Both the position numbers and the translations under genes were made by a program. Shown piece by piece: positions 8,521 to 63,189 of a DNA stretch of 64,000 nucleotides. The DNA comes from Marsupella aquatica. Its lineage: Eukaryota; Plantae; Marchantiophyta. Position 1 is the first letter of the stretch. Each line of letters opens with the position of its first letter. The notes beneath the pieces are model-generated. The model searched no databases and had not been told where the DNA came from. It saw only the letters and a program-made list of their open reading frames with translations. The stretch covers positions 7,573,278-7,637,277 of the forward strand of contig OZ316896.1 in assembly GCA_973895155.1 (NCBI GenBank), read 5' to 3'.

Positions 8521-8531
8521 GCCTGCGCATG

Positions 8532-33154: not shown

Positions 33155-33189
33155 ATCAGCCTATTCATTAAAAGTATATTATTATTTGA

Positions 33190-37527: not shown

Positions 37528-37579
37528 TGAAAAAAATGGATTAAAACCAAACTCATGCAAATTTTGATTCAGACTACTA

Positions 37580-39480: not shown

Positions 39481-39715
39481 CCTCCATTCTTTTTTATTGC
39501 CCTAGATTGGACGCCTGCTAAGACGCCACGTGACACGCTGCCACGTGTTAGAAAGATGGAAGTGAATCGCATCCTTGTGATGTCCTACGTGGAAGAAACG
39601 GAGGAGTTTGACCTCTCCTCTATGAGCGACAGTGTGGAACTGGCACTCAAAGACTCTAGACAATTTCAATCACGAATCCCTAGTAAGTATCCATCACCTA
39701 TCCTCCCTAAGTCTT

Positions 39716-39950
39716 AGAGGACTGGGACCATCCGAGTCCAAACTTGGACTCGGACCATCCCAATCCAAACTTGGACTCGGACCATCCAAATCCAAAGTTG
39801 GACTCGGATGATCCCAATCCAAAGTTGGACTCGGACCATCCCAATCCAAAGTTGGACTCGGATGATCCTAATCCATCTAGGAGATTGAATCCTGATTGTA
39901 GGAGCAAGTCTAAAACCATCTCAAGTTGGACTAGGACCATCCTAATCCAA
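39716..39950. repeat. Intronic 27-bp palindromic repeat cluster (same family as 37580-38460)
   Basis: About 6 tandem units plus a copy at 39926-39950, inside predicted intron 39683-40011. Confidence 0.9.
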
Positions 39951-41712
39951 CAAGAGTTATTCGAATGTTGTAAAGGTTTCAAGTCTAACATGGATGACGT
40001 TTATGATGTAGGGAGCGATCTTGTTGTTTTCAAACCCGTGATTGCACCGACCCACTGCCTGGACGGATTCTTACTAGATGAGAGATCCCCACGCTTTCAA
40101 TGGGGGCTTGAGTTCTCAAGAACCCCGCTTAATAATGAAGTGCCATCAACCACGATTGAACCTGTTTTGACCTTAAAGTGCAGAGGAAATGATAGCCTGA
40201 CTTTTGTTTGCGGACCTGTGGTCTCTGTTGGCATTGGAGGGAGAGGGATGAATACGGTCATTCTTGAGATGCACGATAAGTCCTGTTGGGTTAAAGTTAA
40301 CCTTCTGTCAAAGGCATACTCCTCTGAATTCAATGTCGAATGGCACGCAAGTGGGGAATTGAGCGTTTTGTCAATGGGATTTTTTCCAAAGACCTATGAC
40401 ACAAAGAAGTTGGTCGCCGGGGTAACTGGTATGCTTTCAGTCGACATTATGTATGGGTTTCAATATTTGAAACTCAACATGATGAAGCACCAAGGCAATT
40501 TTTCTTTTGCAACTACCTGGACGTTAAGCAATTTACTTGAGAAAGCTGGATTGTTATTGTTGGAGTCGGAGGAGCCTGGTGTTTTAATTGATAAGGATGT
40601 TGCATTTGCTCCCAAGTTTGATTCAGTCAAAGCAAAGCAATGGATAGAATCTTTGTCCAAGGCGAGAAAGCTTCCAGCGGTGAATACAAACCCTGTGCCC
40701 AAGAAAGCGCCAGAGAAAGCTCTAGAACCTACAACAGAGACCGCGGGAACTACAACAGCGACCTCTCAAAGAGCAGTGGGAAAACGAAAACAAAGCCAAA
40801 GGAAACCTTCGGTTGAGAAGAAACTTCCGGTTGAGAAGCCGAGTTGAGAAGCCAGTTGAGAAGCCGAGTACGAGAAGCCAAGTTGAGAAGCCAGTTGAGA
40901 AGAAACGTCCGGTTGAGAAGCCGAGTGCAAGTGAAAAGAGACCAAGACAGAAGAAGAAACAGAAAATTGACAGTGCCATCATGGATGACACTACAAAAAA
41001 CCTAACAGTGCATTCACAAGATGTGGACGAGCAGTTGGACGCTCCTGAGGAGAAGAAGGTCTTAGAAGGTAATGAGGTATTGCAACAAATGGAGCAATAT
41101 TATACGTTTGGGATCAATTCGATATTTCTATTCCTGTAGACAGTATTTTCCCTGCGTCGGCAAGACTCTGTTACAGAATGTTGAATGCAGAACATGTAAA
41201 GGAGGTGGCCAATTCCATGATAAGAAATCCGGGGCATGAACCACACATAGCAGACTTGATTCCTTACACTACAAAACATAGAAACCTAATGCAATATGAC
41301 AACACAGAATCAGATAGAAGGGACTTTGTAGCAGCCGTGAAAAAGGGCGAGGTGCAATTCCTTGCCATTAGCGGTCAACATTCGGCTAGAGCAGCCAGAT
41401 GGATTCGAGAATGGGCAAACAAGGATGCCAAGCTGACAGCATTGGCGAAAAAGCTGGAATTTCGAAAGTCAAGAATATTATCTCATCGAACACCATCGTC
41501 AATATTAGTTGAGCATTCAATGCGATCTAATGCGATCAATAGCACGATGGTGTTTCAATCATGCTTCAAAGATACAGTCATTCATGCTAGGCGACAATTT
41601 GTGGAATGTGGAAAACCTAGCCGTCCAAAACATGGGGACAACAAAACAAACGCTCAAGACAATCAAAAATTTCAGGTACGAAGTGTTACTGGTTGATGGG
41701 TACAATACCGTA

Positions 41713-42110
41713 GATTCATGCACATTCAATAGAATATTTCCACTGATATCGCCTAGTTTTGCGTTGGACTGGGACCATCCCAGTCCAAATGGATTCATGC
41801 ACATTCAGTAGAATCTTTGTCCACTGATATCGTCTAGTTTTGTGTTGGATTGGGATGGTCCTAGTCCAAATGGATTCATGCACATTCAGTAGAATATTTC
41901 CACTGATATCGCCTAGTTTTGCGTTGGACTGGGATGGTCCCAGTCCAAATGGATTCATACACATTCAATAGATTATTTTTCCACTGATACTGTCTAGTTT
42001 TGTTCTGGACTGGGATGGTCCCAGTCCAAACTAAATCATCCACATTCAATAGAATATTTCCACTGATACTGTCTAGTTCTATGTTGGACTGGGATGGTCT
42101 CAGTCCGCAC
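41713..42110. repeat. Intronic ~80-bp tandem repeat (5 copies), each with the hairpin TTGGACTGGGA-NNN-TCCCAGTCCAA
   Basis: Perfect 11-bp arms at 41764-41788 and 41924-41948, inside intron 41676-42170. Confidence 0.93.
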
Positions 42111-45075
42111 CTGAGTGCTATCAAACAATTGAGTTATGGAGAACTAACAGACTTTCCTTTGCAATTGTAGGATTGGTTGGCTCTTGCAAGAATGACCATG
42201 GGAAGGAAAGATTGTCGAAATGTTTACTGGTTACTGTTTGTGGACGATGCTCTTTTTGAGTTATGGAGTTTGGTATGCCAGTTGTGGTTGGATGGGAAAC
42301 TTCCCGATGGAGCTGGGGTAGAAGGAAATGAGAAGTCTGAAAAAGCAATTACTGTTGCCATGTTTCGTTGTTTTGATGGTGAGTTGATCTCACAATGAGA
42401 CATCACAAGAATACTGACGCGGGTGAAGTCAGGAAAGGTATTGCTAAAGAAAGATGCCTCTAATAAATCAGACATGCCATCTATAGAGGAGTTGGCCAAA
42501 GATGTGAAGATCGTGCGGAAACTGAAGTCCCTTATTGAAGACTACTATTGCACCAAGGATGCGGTGAATTTCCCAGAAAATACTAATTGGGGGAAAGTAG
42601 TGGAGGTTCTTCCTACGCTAGCAATTGATTCAGAGTTCAACAGGTGTCGAAGAGCCGCTGGCAACATCTATCTTGCCAACCTTTTAAAACCAAATCATAC
42701 GCGGGAGAGCGCAATCTTGCCGACGGCATTGGCATTCCGCCTAGATGATATATACTGCCAAAAATTTGGTGGAGGATCACGTTCTCGGACCCTACCATGG
42801 GCTACATTTTTTAGCGACAATCTCATGAAGACCATTGATCTAGAGTCATTGCAAGAAGCTCCTCCGACCTGCCCTCTTGCCATTGTTGATTTTAGCCGGC
42901 TTTCGCAAAAACAAGGACTGAAGCAGAGATTCTTGTTCTCTTTGAATACATTGTGGAGCTTCCACAAAATCCCACGATTGTTGTGACGATAATAGTTCAT
43001 CCTGGACAACTTGCATTGAATGTCCATGGTGCCCTTCGTAAACTGGGACAAGAGAAAGCTTTGACCATTCACATTGAGTATGGGAGTTATTCTCGAGATG
43101 ATCAACCGCACCCTCATGACTCATGTTGGGGTGGGGGGATTGAAGAAGTTATCTTTGCGGGGATTTCTCGAGATGAAGACGTCAATTGGAATGAAGTTTT
43201 CAAGCCCAACTATCCAAAGCCAAAATTCTTGTATACTGCAAAGGATGTTGATTATGAAGTATGCAAGATCGACAAGGGAAAGGGGAAGGCTAAGGAATCA
43301 GATGAGGGGACACAAAACGACGACCTAAAAGTGGTTTTGGACCCGGAAGAGGCCGTCAAGATTATGAATATGGCCCCTCAATTTGAGACAGTTGGCAGTC
43401 GCGGAGGGTGGGTTAATCCTCATGCCAAACCCACGCGGATGATCCAAAGGATTATTGAATCCTTGTCAGAACTGGGAGATTTGGTTCTAGATTTTTTCTC
43501 CGGTGGCCAAGTCATGAAGACATCATTTTTTTGCGATAGGGAATGCTTTGTTTATTGTGACTCTCACTCCGAGAGGCATTTTGTGGAAGCTTTTGCTTCC
43601 TACCTTTGCGAGAGAGTTCCCTCACTTAAAGCTCATTGTGAATCACTTGCTGAAAATTCTCGACAATGGGCTACCACTGTTGCGCCTGTAGCTGTTGCTG
43701 TTGAATCCGATGGTTCTGAGTCTGAAGATGTTGCTGACAAAGTGGCTGAAGGCGTAGAGGCATCAGAGGAGGCATATGTCAAGATTTTGGATGACCGTGT
43801 TGGTCAAGGGGAGCCTTATGATGTAGATGATGATATTGGACTTGCACCAAACCGTTCATCTAGTTTAGATGACATCCCTCTGGGGCCCAATGAAGTTCAA
43901 GTTGATGATAACTTGGACAAGGATGATCCCAATCCAACAACGCCGGGAGGACAGATGGAGCAACTGGAAGGAGCAAGGGTTGATACGTTTGATCATCTTT
44001 CTTCAACCAATCTGCTCAGGGGTCTCACTATATGGGGACCTCCCCATCGCCTGCGACGTTTTTAGGCCTCGGACCCCCTAAAATGTAAGAAAAAAAATTT
44101 ATTTATTAACCCCTATAAAGTTGGAATATTCTTGGAATATTCTAAAAATTGGATTAAAAGGACCCTAATGTTCTTATAAGTCTCAAAATTGAATTTAAAA
44201 GACCCTATTGTTCTTCTACAAAAATTCTTAAGTCTTCCCTTAGAACCAATAAAATGACCCTATCCTTCGTCGCACGTGATATGCCATTTTTGTGGAAGTG
44301 AAACCCCCGAGCCAATCTGATCAATGAAGGCGCAACGAGGCTCGGAGATTCAAATGAAGCTGAAACTAAAGAATTGACTCGGGGGGAGACCGAGGGGGAG
44401 ACTGGCGGATTGCTTGTCATTCCGATCAATCCAGGAGGAAATGCATCAACGGCTACTGACAACCAGGCAGGTGCTTCAACTTGTCCTGACACACTCTTTT
44501 CAGCTTCTGATGACAAATTGGTGTTCGTTCGTTCACACTCGGGGAGTCCTACTGTCCTTCCGCTCTCAAAAAAGAAAGGAAATAGAGTTGGATCAACTGG
44601 ATGGAGGTCATTGGAATGCGACGCACGATGTTACGTGTGGAAAAGTGGGCCAAATCGAGGCCAAGAAATATCATTGGATGCTGCTCCTTCAATTCTCAAT
44701 AAGGAGGAGTATAAGAGTGGAGAATTGGGGTTGATAACTCCTGTTTGGACTTCACCTTATTGGGTAGAACAAAGTACTTCAGATGTCAATTTTGAAATCC
44801 AATAGGAGCTTGGTGCTGACATGATTATTGATGAATACGGATCTCTTATTTCGGAATGAAATTCAGCCTTTGACTTTGTATTTATTCATATCAATCTAAA
44901 ATACTTCTCGGTCTCACAAAATGCGCTCACCAATTAAAGTCTCCATATCCGTCTACACATTGTGAGGCTTCTAAAAATGGTATGTAGGTTAATTTTCTTT
45001 TTTGTCAGCCATTGTCTTGTATTTTTGGACTGAGACAATCCTAATCCAAAGTTCACTTTTGGTCTTTTCTCTGAG

Positions 45076-46135
45076 AATGGTGTTTGGTGCACTTGCAGAA
45101 TCGAGACCTGGTCCCCTCAAGCGGAAGTTGCTGATTTTGGACCTTAATAAAATACTTTGGGATTCCATTGAATTCCAAAGCAAGGGCACATCCAAGAATA
45201 TTGTCACCTCAAGTGGAGTGCATTGGGATAGATCAAATGGAACTAGTCGCATGTATACAGAGAGGCCAGGGCTCCATGAGTTTCTAAAGTTGGTTTTTGA
45301 CCGGTTTGACGTTGCAATTTGGACATGTGCTGGGATGTCGCAAACAGTGAAAATGTTGAACATGATGTTCACAATTGAGGAGCGGTTGAAACTGAAGTTT
45401 GTATTCACATAGGTGGAAGCCTTTGACACAGGCATTCAAAGGCGTGACATTACAAATGGAAAGGAAAATGTGCTATTGAAGGATTTTCGGGTGGTATGGA
45501 GTGCATTTGGAAATCTATATGATGAAACCAACACACTCCTTGTGGATGACTCCCCCTTGAAGGCATTTGCCAACCCAGACATGATTGGACTATTTCCAGT
45601 GCCCTACATGCATGCCAATCGTGGAGACAATTTTCTTCTAACAATTCTTTGGCCATGTCTTGAGAAACTGTCACATGCAAGTGACATTCATTGTTATCTT
45701 CTCCTAAACTCTCCAAAGTGGTCTCTATTGCACATTAAGAGAGACAAGGCAAAAAATGAGATTACTTATGATCAACTTAGTAAGAGATGTGCAGCAAAAA
45801 TTTGGAAGTCACAGTATAGGCATAGTGTGCTGGACCTCAATAGCAATGAGATTCCTTGGGCTATGAAGCACCATATATGCAGCTTACGTCCTGAGGTGGA
45901 ACTTGACGATGCACTTGTCACCTCACTTGCTAGATCATTTGTAGGACGGGAATATTCAGGTCTGTATAGAGAAAATCCCAGACACTTTTTGCGGGAGATT
46001 ATAGCAGTTAGGAACAACACCACCAAATTTCATCTCCCTGAAGATAAAGGGAGTTGCAACCGTGACATTAGGGTAGATAGTAAAGGAGACAAAGGCACGT
46101 GCTCAAATAAATATTGTAAGGAGCACTTTGTTTAG
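45076..46135 (+). pseudogene. FCP1-homology/NIF (HAD-family CTD phosphatase-like) protein
   Basis: KRKLLILDLNKIL, ERPGLHEFL..VFDRFDVAIWT, LLKDFRVVW, YDETNTLLVDDSPLKAFANP. One in-frame TAG at 45410-45412 joins the two ORFs. Confidence 0.88.
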
Positions 46136-46384
46136 AGATCTGACTCATGTTAAGCCCATTAGATAGTAAAAATGGGTGCCAGCCCTGGATATTCATTGTA
46201 AGTTTGGACATAATTGTATATAATTATTTTCACACATTATCAATCAATGGTCCTTGCCTGGGCTTCTTTGTGCGGAAATGTTTTTACAAGTATGATCTCT
46301 ATCCCATGGTTCTTTGTGAACTAATAAGTAATATAATACTATTATATTATATTATATTATAATAATATAATACTAATAAGATTT

Positions 46385-46470
46385 GGCCTATAAAGTGTAC
46401 ATTTAGGTATCAAAAAGTGTACATTTGGGCTTCGTAAAGTGTACATTTGGGGACATAAAAGTGTACATTT
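46385..46470. repeat. Right subterminal repeats AAAGTGTACATTT
   Basis: Four copies next to the right TIR, same motif as at the left end. Confidence 0.9.
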
Positions 46471-46521
46471 CAGGACTGATTTGTGAACAAAAGAAAATAC
46501 ACTTTTAATGAATAGGTTGAT

Positions 46522-47383
46522 AATAATGACACACAACACCGCCCTCTTCGATAAAAGATCCGACAGCATACTGACCACTAAGCTTTGGAGTACCCTGCCA
46601 TGCCTTAGCATTTGCCTTCTTCTTCCTTTGGAAGTACTTGCAGGACTTGTTCCGACATTCAATAAATCCCGTACAGGTAACCTTATCGAATTGCCAAAGT
46701 TTTTTTGGCTGAACGTTTGCGGTAGTGGGAAATATGCGTGTCCAAATGTAGCAATCTTTGGCACGGTCCATGTCCCTTAGCCTAGAGCCTTTAAAGAGCA
46801 TCTTGTCAATGGGTGGCAATTCAAACATGACGTTCCCATTATACTTAGTTGGCAGATAAGAGACTTGCTCATGTCTGAAATCACCCGCTGATATGAACCT
46901 CGATAACTCGCTATGACCAGTGGATTTGAGTAACGTATCCATTGCACTCCGCCGATACACAACCTCCAACTGGTTGGAGCTTCCTGGAGTCTCACCTTTA
47001 ACGACAGCATGTTGCGGGACTTTCATCTTCAACGGAGGACTTGGAGTGTGATCTCCATCTTCACTAGAAGAAATCTCGACAACATCAAATGGAACTTGGG
47101 GGACACTGGACAGTCCTTCATGTTGTCTTACTCAAAGTGAGTACAAAATCCCTGCGTATAGATGCCAAAACTGTTCATCATCATCCACATTGAATGTTGT
47201 TGCATCTTCGATGTCATCACTGGTTTTGAGCTCTCGAACAATGGCCTCAATATCATTCATCTTCAAATCAAATCTCCCGCAAAGGTATCTCTCCCGGACC
47301 TGCTTGTACGTGTCTTCCTTAGGGACGGGGATGGTCACAATATCCCCAGTCCCGAATCGGGATAGAACGATGGACCGAGACAT
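46522..47383 (-). pseudogene. MULE transposase 5' part (WRKY/GCM-like Cys-rich N-terminus)
   Basis: YLPTKYNGNVMFELPP..MDRAKDCYIW..CTGFIECRNKSC..VCHY continues in frame at 33150 after the inserted element is removed. TGA at 47132. Confidence 0.8.
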
Positions 47384-48474
47384 TGCAATCAAAAACAAAT
47401 AACGAGGGCTGTAATGTTTTGGGGAAGAAAAGTCTATGGGAATATGGAGCTTATATCAGTCGAACCTGGGAACTTCACATTAACAGATCCGTTTGTATAA
47501 GACATAAAACATAGTCGACATAGGATCCGTTGGCACCATAAATGAATTTTGTCATTTTTCCCCGATAAGTCCGGATGTCAGACGCATACATACTTCCAAA
47601 AAAGACACCAGAAAAATCTTTAACAGACTCTAAGATATTGTATAGTTGGAACAATTTGAGTAGCGCCTGGCGCTAACTAAAATACCTCAAACATAATGTG
47701 CCCAAAATCTCTAATATTCCATACTAGCGCCTGGCGCTAGTATAGAAAAAATCTCCAGATATACATCAATACTATGAGGTAATTGGATTTAAATGGTCAA
47801 TGAAAATGTGAATTCTCTTAGAACTGTGGATGAAAAATTCTACTTTTCACTAGCGCCAGGCGTTAGTATAGGATGCAAGTAATGTTTCCCAAAAACCATT
47901 AAAACAATAGACATTTCTTTAAATATGGGGGTTGTTTTGACAAAATTTATGTACTAGAGCCACTATTGCAGACCTATTTTATAGCTGTTGTTTTTACTAG
48001 CGCCGGGCACTGCCTTGACAATCATCCCAATTATCTACTTCAAGTGAAGGTGTTTATAATAGCGCCCAACGCTAGTATTCCGAGTAAGAGAGGAAAACGG
48101 TAACATTTAACGATAACTTATGAGTTCCATGTGTGTTACGCTTCTTCTACCGCTTGATTTAGCTAATTAAGTTCTCCGCATACATACATTGGAATCCGCC
48201 AAACTTACGAGCTTCTCGCTTTAATCGAAGCATTTCGCTGAATTCCACCCTCCTTCTAGAGTATATTACTCGTTGAGAGTTGATTAGAGTTCCATAATTT
48301 CATTGTATGATAGTTTGTACGCTTCTGGAAGGAAGACGATGGAGGTATATATTCCCCACTTCATCCGGAGGGTATAGTGCAATTCCTGACCAGGAGCGAG
48401 CTTATTTTGAATCCTCGTAGTCTTCGTTTACTGGTTTAGTTTATACACGTCGTGTAACTCATTCCATAAAATTC

Positions 48475-51400
48475 TTGCCTCCTACTTCTGATAGCACTGT
48501 TTTGCTTCCTAAATCTCTGCGTAGAAAGATGGAGAACCTCAACACGATTGCGATCCAGGATGTTTTGGACTGCGCACTCGCGGAGACTGATGTCATCTCA
48601 AAACATGTCATGTGTTTTGGAAAGGATTATCGTGGATTTGACAAGGAGCCGCCTCGAATCCCTCTATGCCGATTGGTTCATATGGAGGTGGTTCATACTT
48701 TGCAGAAAGACAACTCTTCCATCGAGAAGCTAAAAGACTCATTTCGTAGTATGGGTTACAATTCATCCATAGGAATGCGTTTCTATGTGCAGCCAACGGA
48801 TGAGAATGGAATTGTTCTGACCTGTACCCAAGAGATTCGTGAGTCATGGGATCCAATTTGGCAATTGGAGAACGAGAAGTTTGAGGCTGAATGCGAGGCC
48901 GACCCAGATTTTCTCGTGTTGAAGGATAAGATGTTCTCTGTCTTTGATGGAAATCATAGGCTGTACTCTTGGACGCTTGTTACTGAGGAGAACCCAGACA
49001 ATCCAAAATACCATCCTCGAGTGCTCTGCACAATATTTAAGGGAGACAAGGGATCTGTTATTGAAATTGAGGCAGCTATGCACACCGTCAATCAGTAAGT
49101 TCTTGTTCTTTTCCGGTTACTTCTTTGAATCTTGCGAGTGTTCTATTTAAGAGCGCTCGGCGTTGGTTATAGATCCCGTTATAGATAAATTGTACTTCGA
49201 CTCTAACTCACTGCGTCTCTTCGTGTACTAGGCTTGGCCAAGCCGTTGTTGAGCCATCCCGAATCCTTGATGCAAATAGAATCAAACAAATTCTGGCGCA
49301 TGACCTTGAGTATTACAGTAAACTGATTGACCCGGCTAATTTCAAGAAGTTTGAGAGCATTTGGCTGAAGACTTGGAAGGGGTCATGGTATACGAAGAAG
49401 ATGCCACAGGAAGCTCTTGTTTACATTCTATGTGAGAATAAGATAAAGTCCTATTCGCACCAATTCAAGCTTGACATGGAGGCAGCCAAGGCTCAATGGA
49501 GTCCCTGGTTGGTGGACAAGATTTCCAAACGCCATGCGGCCATGATGAAGGACGCAACCAAAGACTGGGCAGTGAAGTCCTCAAAAATTACGCCCTTGTT
49601 AAGTCCTAAATTTGAAGATTTTCTTAGTACATGTGCAAAAATGTATGCTATCACAAAGAGAAACAAGAGAGAGAAGAAGCCTAACGCCATCGTATGTACA
49701 ATGGACCGCGCCCAATTTTTCACTGCTGTTTCTGCCCTAGACCCAAAGTTACAAAGCACCCTACTTGTGGCACATTGCAATCCTGAGCTACGAAGACAGT
49801 TTTTCCACCCAGAAAGTGTCAACAACGACCCAGTCAAACAATGGTGTCATACTTGGATCACTTGGAATAGTGTAGAGGGAATTGTTGTCGGCATGTTACA
49901 TTCATGTCTGCGTGAAGTAGAGCAAACGATGCCCGCGACTAGATTAGAAGAGTGGAATTGTGGTTTGTTTGATGATCTCGTTCAGTTTGTTACAAATGAA
50001 TTGAAGAGATATGGTAATTCTGTGAAGAGTAAGTTCTTTCACACTATGTGGCCTTCAAAGTATCCAGAAAAAGAAGACTACACCCAGAAAAACCAGAAGC
50101 GGGCTAAAAGGTATCTTTACAGGTTCTACATGCACATGGAGGTAACCAAACCTGATTACTTCTGGGCATATCCTGCAGCTTCCATGAAGTGGATTACAAT
50201 AAGTGAGGATGATGCCATAGCTGATTTGTACTCCATGTACCCAGTGGAGGGCATATTTCCTCCGAGACCTATGACAGAATGGGAGAGAACTCACTACCCC
50301 TGGTATCTAGATACAGATATGGGATTCTCCTTTTGATCAAAGGGAGAAAGATGCATTCCATAAGCTTTCACAGTCCCACATACCAGCAAAAATTGTGTCC
50401 GACATGAAGCAGGGCCTGCTAGACGATGTAGACAAGTCTGCCATAGACTTGCAAAGTATCTGTGAAACGACTATTCTTCATGTGGACCGTAGTCGCAAAC
50501 CTCGAGCGAAAGCAAAAACGGAGTTAGCAGCACCAAGCGAGTCAACAAAATCTGGGAGGAAAAGTGAGTATAGTGTTCCATAGTTTGGCCAGTGCCTGGC
50601 GCTGGCTAGACCTATCATGCGAATTCACATTTCTTTCTAGATTCTTAGGCCTTTGTTGAAACCTAAGTGATTTGCATTTGGTTAGCGCCTGGCGCTAGCT
50701 TGTTTGAATACTCGATATTTACTTGTTCTAACTAGGACCTATTGGTAATTTAGGAGGGAGGAAGTCTAATACTGCGGGAACAGGAGGTACTAAAGTGGAT
50801 GCTACACCTGAAGTTTCTGAGGCAAACATCGGAGCTCGATCGGACCCCATTACTCCTGTCGACAAGGGGAAGGTAATAGTTCCGGTCGACGCCACAAGTA
50901 CCAGGAAGAAATGAAAGAGAGCTATTGAAGGCGGACCTTCTTCAAGGGAGAGTGTTGCAGCATCTGGTGTCCAACGTGAAGTTGGAAACTTCAAAACTAG
51001 AGTGTCTCGTCATGCCATGGTTGAGACAAGCATATCCAAATTTTTTGACTCGACTTTCAACAAGGGGGAATGGGTTAGTAATGTGGAGAAGTGGGGGAAG
51101 GATCTTGTTAAGTCGGGATATAAAGAGAAGGGTGTTGTGCGGGGAGGAAAAGAAAGATCGTTTGGAGTGGATGCGGGTTTCATTTACCTACCGACCGGGT
51201 TCAAACCAATGATCGTAGATAAGAAGGTTCCTAAATGGAACACTCCAGATCACTCCATGGCTAGATCTTTTTTCAAATACATGGATCCATTTCTATCAGA
51301 TGATGGGTTCCTTGCAATTCTACACAATGGGGAGTACGATCCCATGTCTCAAGTCATTGCTGCCTGTCAGGAGTCGAGAAAATTTAAGTGCATATGCACG

Positions 51401-51568
51401 CATAATGTTGTAATGTCTGTCCCAATGTATGCGGCAAAGATAGACCGTCAGGTAATGATCTACTCTTAACTATATCGCATTTTGAGTTATAACTCGTTTA
51501 ACTTGGAGTTGCCAACTGATACTTGGGATTGCTTTCCGCAGATGTTTACCCTCAGGCTGGACATATTT
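48475..51568 (+). pseudogene. Gene B, 5' part: ParB/Srx-like N-terminus and first half of MTase-like fold
   Basis: RIPLCRL..V..LQ..IEKLKDSFRSMGY..MFSVFDGNHRLYSW (ParB GxHR motif). Introns 49095-49231, ~50564-50735 and 51452-51541. VDAGFIYLPTG..WN..FFKYMDPFLSDDGFLAILH corresponds to the motif IV-VI region. Frameshift at about 50320 and TGA at 50912. Confidence 0.82.
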
Positions 51569-52317
51569 CATTGGTACATTTTAGGCATTTTTCCGATACT
51601 AAAAACACGCGTTTCTCAACGCGCCCGATACTAAACACAACGGAAAACTTCCGATACTCCCAGCTACGGAACTTCCGATACTACCCAAATCGAACATTAT
51701 TATCCGATATGTTTTGTATCAAAAACTTTATCCAATACCCATCATATCGGACAATGTCCGAAACATCCTGTATCGCAAATTGAGAGCCGACATGTTTTTC
51801 AGATGTCCGATAATAATAGTATCGAAAGCTAATTCCGATAGGTTTGGTTTCAGACATTTACCGATACAAAATGTATCGGACATATGTTTGCGATACTATT
51901 TACAACGGAAATCATTTGCAAAGGCTGAGGGATCGGTTACTATCTGTTGAAATTTCTATCGGACCCCTCCTCGGCTGCGGGCTTAAGCGTCCGATCTGTG
52001 GAGTATCGGATAGTGGCTTCCGATTTTTATAGTATCGGAAAATCCGATACTTTGAGGATGGGAAGGGGTTTTTTGCTTTGGCAGTACTGATGTGTGTCCG
52101 ATATGTTTCCGATGGTATTTGAATGGGACATATGGGACTTTAGTGTTTTACAATGTATAGGTTGCATGGAATTAATGGATTCAGATATGGGGCATACTTT
52201 AAGCAATAGATATGTATACTGCATGAAATTGTGGACAATTAGAAAAATCATAGAATGCCGATAAAAAGATAGTGCCGGTAAAAATATACATGAAGATGGT
52301 GGGGTCTACAATTTATA

Positions 52318-55300
52318 CTAACTCGTGGGGGGTATGTCTCTATCTTCCACTACAACTACGTTGGGTCTCTCTTGGACTATGGACCGTGATCTGGGAATAT
52401 ACGGCATGACAATGGACCACTCGGGGTCATTGGGATAGGGTAGGTAAAAGCATTGCTCAAGGTGATGTGGGAAGGCAAAGGGATCTGAGGACCTCCAGTT
52501 GGAACTGATGACACTATTTGCGGATGTCTTCAAACGAGTAAAACCGCATGCATCATCTTCACAAGTACGATTGTGGCCTACAAGATTCATCTTGAACCAT
52601 TTGCACTTGAATACCACTTCCTCCAAAGTAGTATGTGCATGGTACTTCACTGTTAGGATCTCCTCAATCTTCCCATAATGGGCCACGGTGGAGCGAATGG
52701 GATTCATGTCTGACATGCTACTCTGGGAATCTTGGGTGAACCAACCCATCACCCCACAATCCTGTGTAGCTGCCCTCTTCTCATCAAGTCGTTCCACACG
52801 AAAATGTCTCCCCTTTGACCACATGGCAGTCCGAGTCGTGACTATAAGTAGTGGACCATGAATCAAGGTACGAAGTTTATCTGTCACGTTTGGGTAGTGT
52901 AATACACTCTCCCCGGTACCCACCAGGGCATCCACTTCTAACAACTTCTCCTTCATGTATGGGTGAAACTTGGGAAATAACCGTGGGCGTCGACTGTTTT
53001 GCTTCTCCTCCTCATAAAATGTTGTCCACTCCCCGACAACCTCGGGTGAGTTATACAACATAAATGTTGTGAGCTGTAAACGCTCTGCTGAGCCTATGAG
53101 ACGCTCTCCAGATGCCCCAGTGAGTCTATCATCCTCGTAGTCAGCCTCTCGTGCCGCCTCATCTATCCATCCCCTAGGAGCACTAGGATCTAGTGTGGCA
53201 ACTATGTTTGTACAGTAAAACATACTCTCTGCTCCAAGATGACGCTCCGCAATGCTACCTTCCACCCTAGCGCGATTAAAGACATATGACTTCATCACCC
53301 CCATATAACGCTCTACCCAATACATCCATCGACAATGTACTGGGCCTGCAATTGCAACCTCGCACACTAAATGTATGAGGAAATGAACCTGACCATCAAA
53401 GAATGAGGGAGGGAGTGCCTTCTCCAACTTGCAGACAACCTCTACTCCAAATATCTCCATGGCAGCAATGTCATCCTCCTGTACCTCCTTTTGACATACC
53501 CATCTTAAGAGCTTACCCAATGACCAAAGGGCATCACGAAGTTCCTCACTACCCAATCCAATAATAGCAACTGGAAGAACATGTTCAAGCAACCGATGAT
53601 AATCATGTGTCTTCAAGAAAGATGGCCATTTTGGAGAATCCTCCCCCCCAAATGCCTTCCTAAGATTGGTACCATAACCTGTGGGAAACCTCATCAACCC
53701 AATACGTCTGCGAAACTCAATGCGCTCTGCCCTTGTCAAAACCCAAGGAGGATGGATGCTAGGGGGAGCACCAGGGGGGTCCAAAGATGGCCAAAAACCC
53801 AAAAGACCATGCATCCCCATCTCCTCACAACTTTCTCTCCAATTGTTATTTTTCTCCCCATATAGATGGCGAATCAATGATTTTCCCACATTCCCCTCAA
53901 TGTGCATAGGGTCTAACAAGTGATTAATGGGCATATCTGACCAATATGGCAATTGTGACAATGCAGACAAACGGGTCATGCCACATCTGAATAATGGTAA
54001 TGGATCACTCGGATCCTGAACTCTCCCCCATACCTCTCTCCAATATGTTGGATCCTTCCGCTAAGGTTGAGGACGAATATCAGGTTGGCCCTCATCAGTA
54101 TCATAAAGGAATGGATCACTCCTCCAAGGATGGTCTGGTGGAAGATATTTAGTATGACCAATGTAAACAATTTTTTGCAGAGTACTTGACTTGGGCCTGG
54201 CCACCCCCTCCAAATCGGGTCCACATGTAGAGCAAGCTCGATAGCCTGATGTTTGCAATCCAGAAACATATCCAAACCCTGCCCAGTGCATAGAAAACAC
54301 ATTAATAAAATAAGGTTCATCAAGGCAAAAATCTGCATAATTGCAATTAAATACAAGGTTTAGGTACTAGAGGAAATAAGGGTTTACCATACCTGGTAAA
54401 TCATGCATGGTCCACATAAGGATGGCCTTTAGAGTAAATACGCGGGATAAACCTCTTGTGTTGTGACGTCCATCATAACAATCCACTCCTCTCCACAGTT
54501 GTATCAACTCATCAATCAATGGCTGCAAGTACACATCAATCTTTTTAACTTGCTTAGGACCCGGAATAATCATGGAGAGTAGTAGTTGACCTTTCTTCAT
54601 GGCCATCCAAGGAGGGATGTTGTAGTTTGTCAACACTACTGGCCACACCAAATATGGTTTGGCTTTTCCTGTCAATGCAAAAGGGCTGATACCGTCTGCT
54701 GCCAAGCCTAGTCAAACATGTCGTGGGTCAATTTTGAACTCTCCCCATCTATCCTCTACAAATCAATTGGCAGGAGAGTCAACCATCATCCGCATGGCAC
54801 TAGAGGGTACAGCCATATCAGAACGATTTTGTGAGTGCCATACCATCATCTCAGCCAACTCTACACATCGGAATTGATGTCGCAATCGAGGGATAAGAGG
54901 AAAGTACCTCATAACTTTTTGCGGTACCTTCCCCGTCAACATGTCATCACGGTACCGTGGCTTCTGACATTTAGGACATGTAGTGGCATTTTCATGCTCA
55001 CCCCTAAAAAGAATGCAATCATCCACACATGCATGTATCACCTCATACTTCAGGCCAATGGACCTCAACACCTGTTTAGCCTCTTTCCAAGAGGCTGGCA
55101 ATGCATTGCCTACTGGCAAAATATGATCATGCAAGGTACGGAAAACATCATCCAAAAGTAGATTGCTTGCCCCATGTCTTTGCTGCAAGTTGAGCAATAA
55201 CATTATTGATGAGAGCCGAGATAACCTACTCCCCTCGAATATGCGAGTACGGGCATGACGTTGCGCCTCCTCCCATTGCTTGTCTTGGGACCCCCTAGAA

Positions 55301-55560
55301 AGATGTGGATGACTAGTCCTTTCATGGGTTGAACCAATGTCCTCCAAACCAATGTCATCGTGATCATCATAGAATTGGTCCATGAGCTCATCCATGGCCC
55401 TCTCCTCATCAAGATGGTCTTGGATAGGATCATCACCATCATGTCGTACCCCATCCTCTTGCCTTTGTGGTTCATGCCCACGGTTGGCCACCATGGCCTC
55501 AACAAGGTGTTGTCGCATAGCTCATGATATTACCCCAATATCAGGCGTTACATATTGATT
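52318..55560 (-). pseudogene. CACTA TnpD/Tnp2 transposase pseudogene
   Basis: IHACVDDCILFRG, MRYFPLIPRL, LGLAADGISPF, YNIPPW, WTMHDLPG, DPMHIEGN, LKTHDYH, WMYWVER, DPFAFPHHLEQCFY. Stops at 55522, 54763 and about 54712. Confidence 0.93.
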
Positions 55561-55682
55561 CTATCATACAACATCAATTAATTAATCTCATCAACACATG
55601 CACTGTTGAACAACATCATTCTCATGTAAACATGTAAAATAAACTGACATATATATATAAAATATGTAAGTCCAAGAAACTA

Positions 55683-57010
55683 TCATGGACGACAACGCAA
55701 GGACAATTTTGGTGCATCCCACTCATACTCACACAATAACTCCTCACCAGCTCTAATGGTCCTAACAGCTACTGTCATGATATGGTCGTCCATATGTTTC
55801 ACAAAATATGGATGTCTAGGTGGACCAAACATTTGAATCCACTCTACATTAGCCTCCAAACCTCTATCTCTACCTGTGGTACTATTGATGTACCCTGCTA
55901 AATTACCGTTCCGAATAGGGTCACCATCAATCATCCAGCAATGCCACGGCCTAGTGAAGACCTCATCCGGGTCTGAGTCCATCCTCAATGTATACACCCC
56001 CCAACTTGGGTGTTGACGCAACAAAATATTCCAACTCTTGGAGTTATATACAGCCCCAATGTAAGGAAAGAGGTGCTCTCCATCATAACCACGTCTCCAT
56101 GGCTTTGGAGGGACCACAATATCCTCCAAAGCAAAAAGACCATATCCTATATCAGGACCAATAGAGGATGCCTTCACTATCCAAGGGCGACCCCATATTT
56201 GAACTGGTTCATCTGTAGGAATAAAATCTGGAAATTTGAAGAGACTTGGAGAAAAGTCCTTCAAAACTTCGGCAGCCCTACCAGTGAGATAGGATAGTCC
56301 AAACCTGCCCTCAACGCAAATATAATCTACGTTACCGGCTGGTCGATCACTAGTACCTAACACCTCCTCTCGTTTGTCTACCTGGTCCAGTGGTCCATAC
56401 TGCCGTCTACGTCTACCAGATCGTGGTCGTGTACGTAGGACCCTAGTAGTCACAACCTCGGGCTGAGAGACCGGTTCCCCCTCTACATGTTCATGTGTGG
56501 GCACGGGAGTGGGGATAGGAGCAGGTGGGCTAAGAGGCATCTGGGCAGGAGGAACTGCAAGCAACTCCCTGGCCCTTGCTAGAAACCCTTCCAACCACAC
56601 AGCTTCAGGAACCAAAGGAGGTGGGGGCCTATGAGGCACCTATTTCAACACACGTACAATGGTTTTACACAAATCAATAAATTAAGTAGTGCCAGGATGT
56701 AAATGAAAGATAATTAAGCAATACCCTAAATTGGAATGCATACATGGAATGAATAGGGGACATAAACATATCTGTACCTGGCTAGGCAAATACCCTGGCA
56801 TATCACCCTCGTGGCGGCCATAGTTCTCGATGTGCTCACAAGTCTCCCACGCATGTCGAACCACAAGTCCCTTACATCTCACACACCAGCAAGGTATGGG
56901 TCCTAGTGGAGCACGAGGACGATCTGGAGGAGGGGGTGGAGGAACCTCCCCCTCAGACGAGCTTGTGTCTGAGTCTGAATCTGACGTGGAACTATCAGAA
57001 GTAGACATCT
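55683..57010 (-). CDS. Transposase-associated Zn domain fused by splicing to a SET domain
   Basis: Exon ending 56778 (IPCWCVRC..HIENYGRH) joins in phase 0 to the exon starting 56639. SET motifs: VKASSI..GYGLFALEDI, FPYIG, IDG..GNLAGYINS, ANVE, VAVRTIRAGEELLCEY. Confidence 0.85.
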
Positions 57011-57326
57011 GCATGCATGAAGTACACTCTGAATTCATGTAAGCTGCATAAAAGAAGACAAGTGTTGGAGTATCAAAATAGAATTAATTAATGCATGAGA
57101 TACAAAAGTCCTGTTGTACCTCAATGATACCCGCGCTTTGCCAGCCTACTGTGTCGTATTTTCTACACACAAGGTGTGGGACATCCAAAATCTCTGCATA
57201 TATGGGTGAGCATTTTGCTAATGAGCATACTAATCTGTAAGTGCGAAAGAGTGTAGGAAGAACACACCACATATAAAAAAATTCCAACATACAAATTAAG
57301 TGTAAATGACGCGGCTCGTGAAGCGG

Positions 57327-58027
57327 GGACATCATACCTCCTGGATGCGCGGTCTCACACTATGCATAGTGCATTGTCCAAAACAAAACCTATCTACCCC
57401 CTCACAAACATTGAACCACCCCTCCAAACGCAAGGTACTATGCATCAAATCCAACAAAACCATTAGCCTAGCTAATATATGGAGGTTGAACCTTATCCTA
57501 AGAAAAGGTGTAACCTTATCCTAGTAAAACCCCATAACCCTAAGCCCATAAACCCCTCCAAAGAAATGATCCAAATAGCTTTCACCAAGAAATGGTTCGT
57601 ACAAAAACTTCTTGTAGTATTTTGTCTATCATATATCATAGTATTGAGTTCCCATCACCACAACCATCCCTAAATTTGCAAGGAACTTGCAAGAGGACAT
57701 CATACCTCCTGGATGCACAGTTTCATGCATAGTGCATTGTCCAAAATCGAAACCTCCCTACCCCCTCAAAAAAAGTTAACCACCCCTCCAAAAGCAAGGT
57801 ACTACACATCAAATCCAAACACAAAGATTAGCCTAATGAAGGGGTTTAATATTATCCTAACAAAAGGTAGAATGTTATACTAATAGAACCTCTACGTACA
57901 CCCATAATCCCCTATAAAGAAATGAAACAAAAGGCTTTCACCCGAAAATGGTTCATACAAAAACTTCTTGTAGTATTTTCTTGATCCTATATTACATATC
58001 ATAGTATTGAGTTCCCATCACCACAAC
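57327..58027. repeat. Imperfect ~370-bp direct duplication
   Basis: GGACATCATACCTCCTGGATGC...GTATTGAGTTCCCATCACCACAAC occurs from about 57327 and about 57694. Confidence 0.88.
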
Positions 58028-58575
58028 GTAACCACCCCTAAAACACCAAGACTCTATACACAATTGCATCATTAATTAGAGCCCAATATATTAAGCATGC
58101 AAGACCATAGCTTATCAAAAAATTATGAAGTCCGGTACAAACCCCAAAATTTTTTCTCCGCAACAAAGAAACTTGCAAGAGGTCCCTCTACATGCATGAC
58201 ACGTTCACTGTCCCGTTCACATATGTAGAGCCCTACAAAACGCGGATTCAAATATGAAAGCAAATAATAACTCCAACCATGTGCCCTTACCCCATACAAA
58301 ACCTAAATATCCTAACTTATACTCTAAACCCTCCAATCCCATACCCAACCCAAATTCAAAACATTATATTGGACCCCCTTTGGGAAAGCCAAGAGGTATC
58401 CGATATAACTTCATGAGGGGTCCGATGCAATAGGAAACGGGCCACACTTGGTAAATACACGGCCACAAGAAAAGGACGAGGGGTCCGAAGCAGATAGTTT
58501 CGGAAAGTCCAATTGCGTGTCTTATACCTTTGGTTTCGCAAAGTCTGAAACAGAAAGAATCGGAAGCAGCAGGTT

Positions 58576-61040
58576 TTGTTTCGGAAAAAAGAACCGATGC
58601 AGGTGCGAAGACCCGCGCGTCGGGCCCCATTTCACACTTGGTGTTTTTCAAATTTTTTGAAGCTGGATCAAGGAGGAGAGCTTGAAGGAGGAGGAGAGAT
58701 GGAGGGGGGCGGGGGATCAGGTGGTGGGGGAGACGAAGGGGGATCAGGTGGTGGTGGAGAGCAAGGGGGACCGTCCCAGCCATACAATGAAGTTATGAGG
58801 GACATTTTTGTGGCCAAGGCAGGGCTGAGTGTGGAGGACGCAGAGAGAGTAGTCCCACTCCTCCAAATGCTGATTGATGCCTCTCGGCGTGAGGCAGAGA
58901 AGACTGCTGCTTCAAGCATTGCAAGTGAGAAGGAGGCAAAGAAGAGGAAGAAAGAGGCAAAGAGAGGCAAGGGGGATGCAGAGGAGACACTGTCTCCAAG
59001 AAAACGAGAGAAAAAGCTTCGAAACGAAGCTAGGGCAATTGAGAAGGTGCGATTGGAGGAGCAGAGGCGAAAGGAGGCAGAGAGAGCTCTCAGGCCTGAG
59101 CTAGCTCTCAATTCGGGTGGTGGTCCATTGCCTAAGAGCTACCATCTATTCCGAAGCCAATTCAAGCAGGTGCTGAGGGCCAATTTGGGGCCACTGGATT
59201 ACTGGGGCAAGAAGAAGGAGGAAGAGAGATTGAGAATCAGAGAGCAGGTGAAGGAACGGTTCAGGAACGAGGCCTACATTGATGACAGGTTCCTAAACAA
59301 ATGAATTTCAGCATCACTCTCAGACATGCGCAATCATCAGCGAGAGAAATTCAGAAAGTACCTTGGAGATATGGCAGTGGATGCAGAGGTGATCAGGGAG
59401 GAGGGTTGTCCAGACGATGTTTCCCCGGATGAGTGGGCGGCTTGGCTTGAGGAGGAACTCTCAGTCCGTGCCTGGCTGAAAAGAAGACATTGGGACAACA
59501 AAATTAGGCTGGCAGAGGAGAAGCGAAAGGCTGGGGAGAATGTTGATATCCTCCCCCTTCAACAGAACCTGCAACAATGAGCAGCTCAGGCAGCAAGACT
59601 CCCCAAACCACCAAGGCACATCATAGCAGCATTGGAGAGAGTGCAGGGGAGGCCAACCATCACTCATCGGATGGGGCAAGGCGGCTCCAATCGATTGAAG
59701 GCTGAGTTTGTAAGTGCCCTCCCTCTCCTCCCCACCTCGACTCCCTGATCACCTGACTCCTCGCACGAAGAATGAGTTGTTTGTGCCTTATGTCTTTTGT
59801 TTAAACCCTTTGCAAAACTCATTTTTGCTCTCAGGCTTGTTCTTTCCGATACTCATCCGATAGGTTTTGCATCGGAAGCAACATCGGACACCGTGTCATG
59901 CCATTTTTCTTGTTACGCATCCGATAGACGTCCGATGCAGGATGTATCGGACTTTGCATCGGACCCCTCGGCATAACATTTTGAATGAACGTACTTAACG
60001 TTAATTTTTTACTAGGGTAGAGTATAAGTTAGGGTGAACTATGGTTTAAGGTTACATTAGGGCTATGTAGGGTGGCTTGGTTTAGGGTAGGGCACGCTAA
60101 TACTAGATTTGATATTAACCTGGCCTCTATGGTTTGGATCTTTAAATTTCAGGAGTGGGAGTATGGTCGCCCTATTGCGCCGTTGGAGAGGAATTTGGCA
60201 AAGGATGGACCCCGCGCTCTAAAGCGCCACCTTGAGGATGAGTTGGGAGAGGTAAGTGTTCACCCTAGGTTGATATAATGTTTAAGGTTGTCATGAATTT
60301 GTTAGAGTTATGGTCGGGACCATTCATTCTAACTGCAATTAAACCCTATTGCACAGGATGAGGAGGGGTCTGGGTTAGAGGAGTTGGACTCAGATTCTGA
60401 GCAGGATGCTGAGGCAGGGTTGGGGAGGGTGCCCACAGTCACCCCTACTCCTCAGGTCCGAGGTATTGTTGCCCCATCTGGTGCCGTTGCCCCATCAGCA
60501 GGGAGGGGTGGGTCACATGCTGCTGATGGTGTGGGCTCCCATCGCTCTGGAGCATCACGGGGTGCGGGGCCCAGGCACTCAGGGGGTAGTAGAGGTGATG
60601 GCATGGGACAAGGCGATCACGTAGGAGTATCTGGTGCAGGTGGCCCTTCCCGACGAGGTAGTGGCGACGTGCCGGATGGTGGATCTAGAGGGCGCGCACC
60701 ATCTCGTGAGTCTGGTGGGAGTACAGCACGACATGGGCCACCCACAGGATCTGTCGGCGCACCATCCCATCACTCTAGCAGGTCTGCGGGAGGAGCTGAG
60801 GCATCCTTTCACTCTGTTGTGTCGGGGGTTGGTGGGACATCTACCTTGCCTGACCACCCTAGCGGTGCATCTAGTGGGTCAGGGTCTAGGCCTGCATCAG
60901 GCCAACCCATGCCATCTAGTGAGCAGGTGGCTGCCACGGTTGTGGGCAGCCAGAGGGAGGAGGGCTCTCATGATGCTAGACCTGTACCACCCCTTTGTTC
61001 TCGCCCAAAGAAGAAGAAGGGACGCAACACACCTTTTTAG
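58576..61040 (+). pseudogene. TnpA/Ptta-like gene of CACTA-3, multi-exon, divergent from TnpD
   Basis: W.KK.EEER..I.EQVKERF, CPDDVSPDEWAAW and THRMGQGG (compare SHFGRGG at about 23430). TGA stops at 59302 and 59578. Gly/Ser-rich last exon. Confidence 0.65.
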
Positions 61041-61893
61041 AGGTTAGTTGCATTTAGGTGGCCGGGTATCTAGTGCTAGACAGCTTTGATTAGACACTCA
61101 CTAGGAGGTACCTTGTATATAGCTCAGTGTAGTCTCTAGTCAAAGCTCTCTTTACATCTTCTATCGTGCCATCACGACCAGGATGGGTCTACCCAGTAGG
61201 CCTAATCCATTTTGTACATATTAGGGTGATACCCTTTTTGAATATGATATTTTGACCTCGTGTTTATAGCATTATCTTTGGTTCCTAATTGGTGTATGTC
61301 ACCTTCAACCCTAAACCAATACCCAAACCCCCAAAAAACCACCCATGAAACCCTGTATTCCACCCCCAGAACATTTGATAATCCGTTGCAAGTCCGTTAC
61401 CATCCGTATCGGTAATATAGCAGTGTCCGATGCTGCTGCCTTCAAACTTTCCCATCCCCAACGCATCGGACCCCTCCTTGAGGGTTCCCATCTTAAACAT
61501 ATCGGATAGTCCGATACAAAAACTAACGCACTTTCCGTTATTATAAATAATGCAATGTCCGATAAAAATTACTTTGCAAATTGCCATATCAAATATATCG
61601 GACATCCCGATGTAAATAGTATCGGACATAGGAAATCGTCGTGTGCCATCGCGTGTTAATTATCCGATTCATTTTACATCGGACATAAAATATCCATAAC
61701 ACATTACGATGGAACATCCGTTGTCCAAAATATTGGAAAGTCCGATGGAAGTCCGATGGTCGATATGCGATGGTTTACGCATCGCAAAGTGCGTTGGGAA
61801 TAGCATCGGATGATAGAAATTTTTGCGTCAATTTTCCTCAAGGGATCCGATGTAAATCCTATCGAATAAAGGCCCAAAAATGTACTAGTGTTT

Positions 61894-62851
61894 GGTCAAA
61901 TTAATGGGAAATTTAAAATTCCCAAAGACCCTAAATTCCATCCACTCTCCATCAGTGAGGACCCCTCGGTCACCAATTTGATCGGACTCCCTTCTCTCAA
62001 ATCCGATCCATTCCTGCAAATGGAGTTTTCTGGAAATGCTCGCCTGTCTGTCGAGTTTATGCAATTTGTCATCGAGCTTGTCACTCGACCTCGTGATATT
62101 TTTATGGATTGGACCGCTGGGGATGGAAGCTCCTTCATTGCTAGAGACTTCTCCGGGAGGTTTGTGCTTGGGATAGAACATAGAAAATTTATTGAAACCG
62201 CTTTGAAGGTTTTTCATGGATTTGTTGTCTCCCAACGAGATTGCGGTTTTACCTCCACCTGTTCCTACTGCCGACAGAAAGAAGCAAGATAAGCTTCAGT
62301 CAGTATTCAATTTTGACTCTGATGATGAGTCCAGTGAAGGTGGAGATGGCGAGGAACAAGGTACAGGGGACTCGGAGGAGGAAAAGGAAGAACCTTGTGG
62401 ATCTCCAGATGAAACCGATAGTGATGACTCTTCCGAGTAATGTTCATAACTCGTAAACTTCTTTCTCCATTCCTGTCAATTTATAACATTTCTGTGTTGT
62501 TTTGGAGAAGGCACCTAACCTACTGGATTTCGTTTCATCAGGTCAGAGTGGAATGCGAGGAGACATTTCAAACTGCGAAGGAGGGTTGCTAGACACAACA
62601 TAGAAACACCAGAAAAACCTTTTGTTCTTCCCTCCTATGCAGAGAAAGCCGCAAGGAAAGCCGAGAGTACCAGGATGCATTGCTGGGAAAATAAAGGTCT
62701 TCGGTTACAAAGGGGTGTTGACAGGAAGTTCATTAAACATCCTTATGTTGATGACTTCTCCCGCAGCCAGTACGTAGATGATGAGGTTGTGTCCATGGAC
62801 AAATCCGAGAGTACAGATTCTGGTTCTAAATCAGAATCTACAGAATCGTGA
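61894..62851 (+). pseudogene. Gene B, 3' part: N4/N6-MTase-like SAM-binding region and acidic tail
   Basis: RLSVEFMQFVIELVTRPRDIFMDWTAGDGSSFIA..SGRFVLGIE versus canonical KP..L...I...T.PGD.VLDPF.GSGTT..A...GR..IGIE. Final exon is collinear with 28600-28917. Confidence 0.82.
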
Positions 62852-63189
62852 CACGTATTGAGGAATTTAGGGAGAAATGTTTTACCAACGCCTAGCGCTA
62901 GTACCAACTTGTATTCGATTCCTCTCATTGGGTCCTTATAAATTAATGTCTCATTACTTGTGTTTTTTACAAGCGCCAGGCGCTCGCCAAATGGTGATTC
63001 ATAAAGCAAATATTTCCAGCTCTTATTTGTGTAACACGGCCGTTTGGTCTTTGTCGTGTCCTACCAACGGTCATCATAATGAGACAAATAGTAGGCAATA
63101 CATAGTATAATATACGTTTCGGATACCAACGGCCATTTCATTTAGGTCCGTTAGTTTGCCAAGGAAACCCACATGGACTGTATTTGGAT

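Follow-up and report, generated by a model that had tools for sequence, protein, structure and literature searches.

A conserved non-canonical motif in a ParB-like and methyltransferase-like gene beside a Mutator-like transposase gene, and a palindrome that may be its binding site

A 64,000-nucleotide stretch of Marsupella aquatica DNA (contig OZ316896.1; the whole stretch is called the window below) contains a gene, here called gene B, that combines ParB-like and methyltransferase-like domains on the strand opposite to a transposase gene. At the likely position of its catalytic motif IV, YLPT stands in place of D/S-P-P-Y, and this non-canonical motif is conserved under selection. Copies of a palindrome, TAGCGCC-N-GGCGCTA, are dispersed through the non-coding DNA of the gene and its neighbors. 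Gene B is very probably transposon cargo; our reading of it as a multi-copy accessory gene, encoding a non-methylating putative binder of the palindrome of its own element, is a tentative one. ParB-methylase accessory genes are already known from algal transposons, so that the novelty here lies in the Mutator-like setting in a land plant, in a non-canonical motif that is conserved, and in palindromes specific to each element.

Conservation of the motif can be judged from a damaged paralog in the window, B', positioned beyond the 3' end of the transposase gene. Synonymous sites are saturated between B and B' (proportion of differences, pS, 0.63-0.83) and amino-acid identity ranges from 45 to 83%, and in FGVDAGFIYLPTG all 13 residues are identical despite six synonymous changes, which places the motif under selection. 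The chance of such a 13-residue identity is about 0.002-0.01 at a background identity of 62-70%, and nowhere else do the two genes agree as well as around the motif (87% over 15 codons, versus 45-83% elsewhere). A homolog, P0001, retains 12 of the 13 residues, and YLPT recurs with different codons in one diverged contig each from two public runs (X1 and X4). Among the contig differences listed, none falls within 51107-51208; as a further 277 rows lay beyond the listing, this was given no weight. The original prediction that B' shares VDAGFIYLPTG (27441-27473), and that the substitution is conserved rather than a product of decay, is thus borne out.

Gene B has five exons (Table 1; intron 4 is at 62437-62541), and its intact product would have about 1,158 amino acids. 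It had been proposed that removal of the introns and of CACTA-3, a transposon inserted in exon 4, leaves VFDGNHR (48940-48960), VDAGFIYLPTG (51167-51199), FLSDDGFLAI (51290-51319) and MDWTAGDGSS (62104-62133) in that order. All four do lie in this order on the forward strand, and excision of CACTA-3 in silico brings exon 4 back into register with B', but the reading frame remains closed by frameshifts near 50319 and 62210 and a TGA at 50912-50914. CACTA-3 has CATTG/TAGTG ends flanked on both sides by TTT, and its empty site is present in the public runs, contigs from 4/4 of which skip exactly 51569-61890 (at depth 4.9 in the fourth). In these runs, for which library type is unrecorded and contig depth is not equal to copy number, up to 15-18 different contigs cover single gene B positions. 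Related contigs carry two extra bases at the frameshift near 50319 in 4/4 runs, most contig depth at position 50912 has C in 4/4, and related contigs are one base shorter at 62210 in 3/4; the window copy of gene B is therefore dead, a pseudogene within a multi-copy family. B' is also a pseudogene: another CACTA end cuts it at its 5' side, its frame has shifted once and holds stops at 26350, 26707 and 27114, and one splice acceptor is gone. Gene B also appears in a form without intron 3 (51452-51541), in which motifs IV to I share a single exon; it was represented by one contig each, in 4/4 runs by one listing and in 3/4 by another, with 18-29 letters on the short side, and it is possible that this reflects intron gain or loss between subfamilies. 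Aboard CACTA-3 there is a SET-domain gene at 55686-56639 on the reverse strand (Pfam E 3.4e-6).

The gene opposite gene B carries D, D, DxxH and E motifs that we take to be those of a Mutator-like transposase. Mutator-like elements (MULEs) have a DDE triad with C/DxxH, long terminal inverted repeats and a target duplication of 9-11 bp; a Pfam search of the gene gave no MULE match. The palindrome occurs 19 times in the window at up to three mismatches, versus 0.5 copies expected. All but one of these copies are in the unit formed by gene B, the transposase gene and B' (the B unit), and 18/18 of these lie outside the approximate exons, for which the chance is about 4e-10 at an approximate non-coding share of 30%; neither of the two elements nested in the unit contains any. 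The palindrome, spread from 26951 to 62985, includes CG as well as CCWGG sites. Of the 15 changes in its core, 14 are C>T or G>A, a signature of decay following cytosine methylation, which suggests that the palindromes were once methylated in the window copy. CpG observed/expected ratios are 0.65-0.71 in the B unit versus 0.35-0.54 in neighboring elements; this was not used as a sign of anti-silencing, because age could explain it and the core changes in the palindromes suggest methylation.

One interpretation of this arrangement, plausible enough to put forward though still tentative, is that the gene B protein recognizes YAGCGCC-N-GGCGCTR and thereby marks its own element, so that the element stays transcribed or is organized for transposition. 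The intact product would then be a self-recognition factor, ParB-like with a beta-class methyltransferase fold and likely non-methylating, which would bind to palindromes within the introns and intergenic stretches of its own element, with the methyltransferase fold serving as a non-catalytic DNA- or SAM-binding module (SAM, S-adenosylmethionine); its proposed role would be that of VANC for VANDAL elements. If this is true, plants would have reached VANC-like self-protection by a second route, and proteins of this type might serve as programmable DNA binders. With a candidate site for each of two such genes, and a catalytic motif that was first replaced and then held under selection, the proposal lends itself to direct tests of binding and of activity.

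Some points weigh against this self-recognition model. The termini of the B unit were searched for within the window and not found, so that common mobility of B, B' and the transposase gene is unproven, and the transposase could equally bind the palindrome. In its full form the latter explanation keeps gene B as the same non-methylating accessory, acting by protein contacts or by unspecific DNA binding, and makes the palindromes sites for the DNA-binding domain of the transposase. It is consistent with the presence of palindromes around the transposase gene as well, with CACTA-3, in which a repeated motif of its own (23/26 TCCGATA copies) is found and no ParB-like gene was seen aboard, and with sequence-specific activation by a Mutator transposase, as stated in the available part of a 2026 preprint (10.64898/2026.08.24.746577). 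It is nonetheless rather unlikely: the palindromes are not confined to the vicinity of the ends and sit deep inside introns in both B and B', a pattern seen with VANC, and in the nested element described below most copies of a different palindrome (37/40) cluster before or inside a ParB-like gene.

As to the domains themselves, the N-terminus of gene B is likely ParB-like, judging from its DGNHR motif, from ESM Atlas clusters (ParB/Sulfiredoxin 0.95, DUF3723 0.94, ParB_N 0.92) and from a faint NCBIfam DGQHR match (E 0.043). The earlier assignment to ParB is upheld to this extent, but searches with this part gave no match in Pfam and no useful sequence match in the PDB, and hhalign comparison with 11 phage ParB fusions gave no support (probability 1.6). 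For the C-terminal half of the methyltransferase-like domain (motifs X-I-II), sequence comparison makes a solid case for homology to beta-class amino-methyltransferases. This half matches NCBIfam PRK13699 (E 3e-4) and, under the cut-off, Pfam N6_N4_Mtase PF01555 (E 0.0044); a profile comparison gave E 1e-6 for gene B and 7e-12 for B'; B' matches a PHROG DNA methyltransferase (E 1.2e-7); and PDB sequence matches of the C-terminal halves are weak and beta-class (DpnA, E 0.063; M.RsrI, E 0.027). D72, G76 and G78 of motif I and E95 of motif II are the same in B, B' and all 26 phage enzymes compared.

It is highly likely that the domain as a whole has the beta-class fold, the layout originally predicted: a profile of B, B' and P0001 aligned colinearly over 191 columns with 31 phage beta-class domains (hhalign probability 94.5, E 7.4e-8). 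Those domains were picked by a canonical-motif pattern (184/290 loci passed, then thinned at 65% identity), which makes the set uninformative on how often the motif varies. In this alignment GVDAGFIYLPTG lies without a gap over svDlvlTDPPYg, and the distance from the YLPT tyrosine to motif I is 169 residues, versus a median of 172 in the phage domains. That YLPT occupies motif IV, as had been claimed, is likely; it is favored as the sole candidate invariant in all three sequences, because it ranks first in B once the strand before the motif is scored, and because the spacing of a nearby tryptophan fits the KWD loop.

A number of results weigh against this placement, and against a methyltransferase fold for the N-terminal half. 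Taken alone, the N-terminal half scores 18.2 in local mode versus 13.1 +/- 2.5 for shuffled columns, a score that 7 of 150 shuffles attain; nearly all shuffles (199 of 200) do as well as this half in global mode, and hmmsearch domain scores are below zero. MAFFT lays V/S/I-P-K-W, not YLPT, onto DPPY, the plain motif IV scan puts SVPMY first in B, SPKW in B' and GAPMY in P0001, and just three sequences of the gene B family (B, B' and P0001) were alignable. The structure prediction proposed as a check was made for the N-terminal half. The unbiased model has a predicted local distance difference test score (pLDDT) of 34 and no Foldseek match; a second AlphaFold model, built from an alignment with phage methyltransferase rows, reaches pLDDT 54 and, at E 0.001, is likewise unmatched in Foldseek. 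The Rossmann-like matches of this second model (best Z 7.5, below Z 8; root-mean-square deviation 3.0, 111 aligned residues) are led by class I methyltransferases, with no beta-class DNA enzyme among the 50 listed, and are largely circular, being for the most part imposed by the phage rows. This model does make F-I-Y a strand (local pLDDT ~35), though the supplied alignment put a helix there.

Two other registers for motif IV were considered and found less likely. In V/S/I-P-K-W the preceding residues are polar with an insertion or deletion, and the W is 20 residues ahead of motif VI, comparable to the KWD tryptophan (18 in 6 sequences), whereas the motif IV aromatic is at least 25 away (16/31 measurable). 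V/A-P-M-Y is VSMY in B', and leaves the upstream strands unexplained.

Whichever of the three candidate registers is taken, B, B' and P0001 lack a conserved (D/N/S)-P-P-(Y/F/W) motif IV. In the YLPT register the stacking aromatic becomes Thr, a point that bears on the base-flipping DNA binder suggested earlier, and motif X, HPTQKP, has become GNARLS in gene B. In the bdelloid enzyme N4CMT, according to the available text, the Ser hydroxyl and Pro carbonyl are at the amine position, with Tyr stacked against the base (PMC10406627), and a change of SPPY to APPA kills activity (PMC8885841). With neither the D/S acceptor nor the stacking Tyr in YLPT and with motif X altered, loss of amino-methylation is likely, and methylation of an exocyclic amine by the gene B protein would probably be impossible; the D, G, G and E on the SAM side are retained, and SAM binding may remain.

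These retained residues could also point to an active enzyme with a remodelled pocket, one that would bind SAM and methylate or otherwise modify a base in its own element, the catalytic roles having passed to the Tyr/Thr of YLPT or to the conserved Trp of PKWN. The conservation of the odd motif, unequalled elsewhere between B and B', does point to a precise function, and the Ectocarpus protein discussed below is a predicted methylase. Activity of this kind is unlikely, however, given that there is a conserved acceptor residue in no register, that motif X is changed, that N4CMT dies on loss of S and Y and that the ParB-like gene of the nested element likewise lacks D/S-P-P-Y. That methyltransferase ancestry is limited to the SAM-binding half, exon 3 being unrelated or unrecognizably changed and the motif IV match a coincidence, is very improbable. 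The weak statistics of the N-terminal half would fit, as would exon 3 itself, which gave no Pfam, NCBIfam, PHROG or PDB sequence match pointing to a methyltransferase, but the colinear 191-column match speaks otherwise, both structural models have the helix-strand order expected of a permuted half, and the leading ESM Atlas clusters for exon 3 alone are methyltransferases (0.83-0.84; a lead only, with 10/10 family-bearing matches in one family or clan). Least probable of all is that gene B is a host gene family captured passively, as in Pack-MULEs, and does nothing for the element: the missing unit ends would agree with this, but the many divergent copies (up to 15-18 contigs per position), the selection between paralogs and the second, unrelated transposon with the same gene type in the window stand against it.

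Table 1. Features of gene B, its paralog and neighboring elements (window positions)
Feature	Position	Strand	Remarks
Paralog B', 5'-truncated pseudogene	26099..28920	+	Identical motif 27435-27473; motif I MDWTVGSGSS
Nine palindrome copies	26951..31976		Introns and 3' flank of B', intron of transposase gene
Mutator-like transposase gene (presumed), 3' part	30300..33156 (low end approximate)	-	D 32573-32547, D 32369-32349, DxxH 32287-32264, E 31734-31705
Nested 13.4-kb DUF7869 transposon	33157..46519	.	Splits Mutator-like gene; terminal inverted repeats; 4-bp or 8-bp target duplication; DUF7869 E 1e-38
Arrays of palindrome TTGGACTGGGA-N3-TCCCAGTCCAA	37572..42106		Before and inside gene A
Gene A, ParB-like and beta-class methyltransferase-like, broken	39711..44065 (start uncertain)	+	AISGQHS 41364-41384; Pfam N6_N4_Mtase E 1e-5; hhalign probability 91.7
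Mutator-like transposase gene (presumed), 5' part	46520..47455	-	Head-to-head with gene B, ~1.07 kb apart; frame continues across nested element
Five palindrome copies	47661..48074		Between transposase gene and gene B
Gene B exon 1, ParB/Sulfiredoxin-like domain (likely)	48529..49094	+	DGNHR motif 48946-48960; ESM Atlas 0.95; NCBIfam DGQHR E 0.043, below cut-off
Gene B exon 2	49232..50563	+	Family-less region, proposed earlier to be helical; frameshift ~50319
Two palindrome copies	50590..50697		Gene B intron 2
Gene B exon 3	50754..51451	+	Low-complexity linker, in-frame TGA 50912-50914, then methyltransferase-like N-terminal half
FGVDAGFIYLPTG in gene B	51161..51199	+	Likely motif IV position; YLPT instead of D/S-P-P-Y
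PKWN in gene B	51230..51241	+	Likely KWD-type loop after motif IV; also rival motif IV register
FLSDDGFLAI in gene B	51290..51319	+	Motif VI-like
Gene B exon 4, part 5' of CACTA-3	51542..51568	+	
CACTA-3 insertion, 10,322 bp	51569..61890	-	TTT target duplication; Transposase_21, DUF4218, DUF4216, SET-domain gene
Gene B exon 4, remainder	61894..62436	+	Motif X-like, motif I, motif II, frameshift ~62210, acidic tail
Motif I MDWTAGDGSS, gene B	62104-62133	+	
Motif II LGIEH, gene B	62167-62181	+	
Gene B last exon	62542..62851	+	Basic then acidic; 53% identity to B' last exon
Two palindrome copies	62886..62985		3' of gene B

The transposon nested in the Mutator-like gene carries a second gene of this type, gene A, inside its terminal repeats. 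Its ParB-like part is suggested by a motif only, and hhalign and a motif scan both found no D/S-P-P-Y motif IV in it. All 40 window copies of the palindrome TTGGACTGGGA-N3-TCCCAGTCCAA are within the nested element, 37 of them at 37596-42084; with the gene B palindrome in the B unit and this one in the nested element, each gene sits among a palindrome of its own, and the locus offers a concrete candidate binding site for each of two ParB-methylase genes. With hhalign, no closeness was detected between genes A and B (methyltransferase parts, probability 1.3; ParB parts, 0.1). Directly 5' of the ParB-like part lies an open frame of 378 codons that belongs to no known family (39711-40847, forward strand); it starts in the 27-bp palindrome array and may be the N-terminus of gene A. 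The nested element also carries a gene for an NIF/FCP1-type phosphatase (44993-46135), and its target duplication, if of 4 bp, would fit Sola-type elements.

The closest parallel among described systems is an accessory protein of Sola1-1_Ec32 in Ectocarpus, a ParB-like and N4C/N6A methyltransferase protein of 1104 amino acids and a predicted methylase (PMC12477816, as far as available). The two share the two-domain architecture, size (1104 vs ~1158 amino acids), a position on the strand opposite the transposase of a large DNA transposon and proposed self-binding; compared by description, gene B differs in its land-plant-type genome, Mutator-like transposase, replaced conserved motif and dispersed palindrome. 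In Bostrychia, PF01555 and ParB-like accessory genes are described, in the accessible text, as moving from one transposon superfamily to another, the ParB-like gene lying next to arrays of inverted repeats, and among its Plavaka genes PAG2 combines PF01555 with SET and PAG3 a ParB-like domain with a 2-oxoglutarate (2OG) oxygenase (bioRxiv 10.1101/2025.02.11.637652). Here too the same domain types are aboard DNA transposons with inverted-repeat arrays near a ParB-like gene, but ParB and methylase are in separate proteins as described there, whereas gene B fuses them and has a non-canonical motif.

Phage and prophage fusions of ParB with a beta-class methyltransferase (for example loci L003 and L004) have the same domain order, and their motifs X-I-II align with those of gene B; they differ in length (~400 amino acids) and in a canonical DPPY, and gene B has introns, some 550 more residues separating its domains, and a ParB part without detectable profile match to theirs. 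The beta-class layout is also that of two eukaryotic enzymes, MpDN4MT1 of Marchantia (bioRxiv 2021.02.12.428880) and N4CMT of bdelloid rotifers (PMC8885841, PMC10406627). By the descriptions available, these differ from gene B as active host enzymes that keep (T)SPPY, and no ParB domain is described for them in those texts. VANC, according to the part of PMC5735166 available, binds family-specific motifs in introns and intergenic DNA of Arabidopsis VANDAL elements, and under the working model it resembles gene B as a transposon accessory protein binding a short family-specific motif in the non-coding DNA of its own element; its motifs are arrayed in one orientation, whereas that of gene B is a palindrome, and no sequence kinship is claimed. 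Fusions of ParB with a helix-turn-helix (HTH) domain, and inactive methyltransferase domains borne by transposons, are mentioned for other clades in the available text of PMC4738411. By these comparisons gene B would act in the manner of such accessory proteins, and it lacks the catalytic motif expected of an active beta-class enzyme. No account of the land-plant gene B family or of the YLPT motif was found in the literature covered, subscription papers and Iyer 2011 lying outside it.

A more far-reaching possibility, which we consider distinctly unlikely, is that at least two plant transposon superfamilies each pair a private parS-like palindrome with a ParB-methylase, and that selection rebuilt the pocket of the latter (YLPT) so that it reads a modified base or writes an unrecognized mark. 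A bacterial partition-plus-modification module would in that case have been turned to sequence-specific anti-silencing, independently of VANC.

Homologs were sought both as proteins and as loci. P0001 was the one exon 3 homolog among 19 candidates near the query length; among longer proteins there were none for exon 3 (0/251) or for the ParB exon (0/283), and exon 2 of gene B had no match in Pfam or NCBIfam. Scans for related loci confirmed none in metagenomes (0/57 and 0/191 stretches), GTDB genomes (0/52) or viral contigs (0/186).

Repeats abound in the eukaryotic DNA of the window, which has GT..AG introns and three regions of CACTA-type transposase and is CpG-depleted (observed/expected 0.35-0.71 in most regions). 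Short tandem repeats with periods of 40, 18 and 19 lie beyond gene B at 63202-63863; they could end its element or a neighbor, and had no matching partner within the 64-kb window. A remnant of a ribosomal protein L18a gene, intronless in that stretch, is at 10723-11091 (forward strand; Pfam E 3.4e-18). The first CACTA transposase is adjoined by a twin-BRCT frame and an NSD-type PHD-finger frame (6378-8547, reverse strand; Pfam), more cargo of chromatin type.

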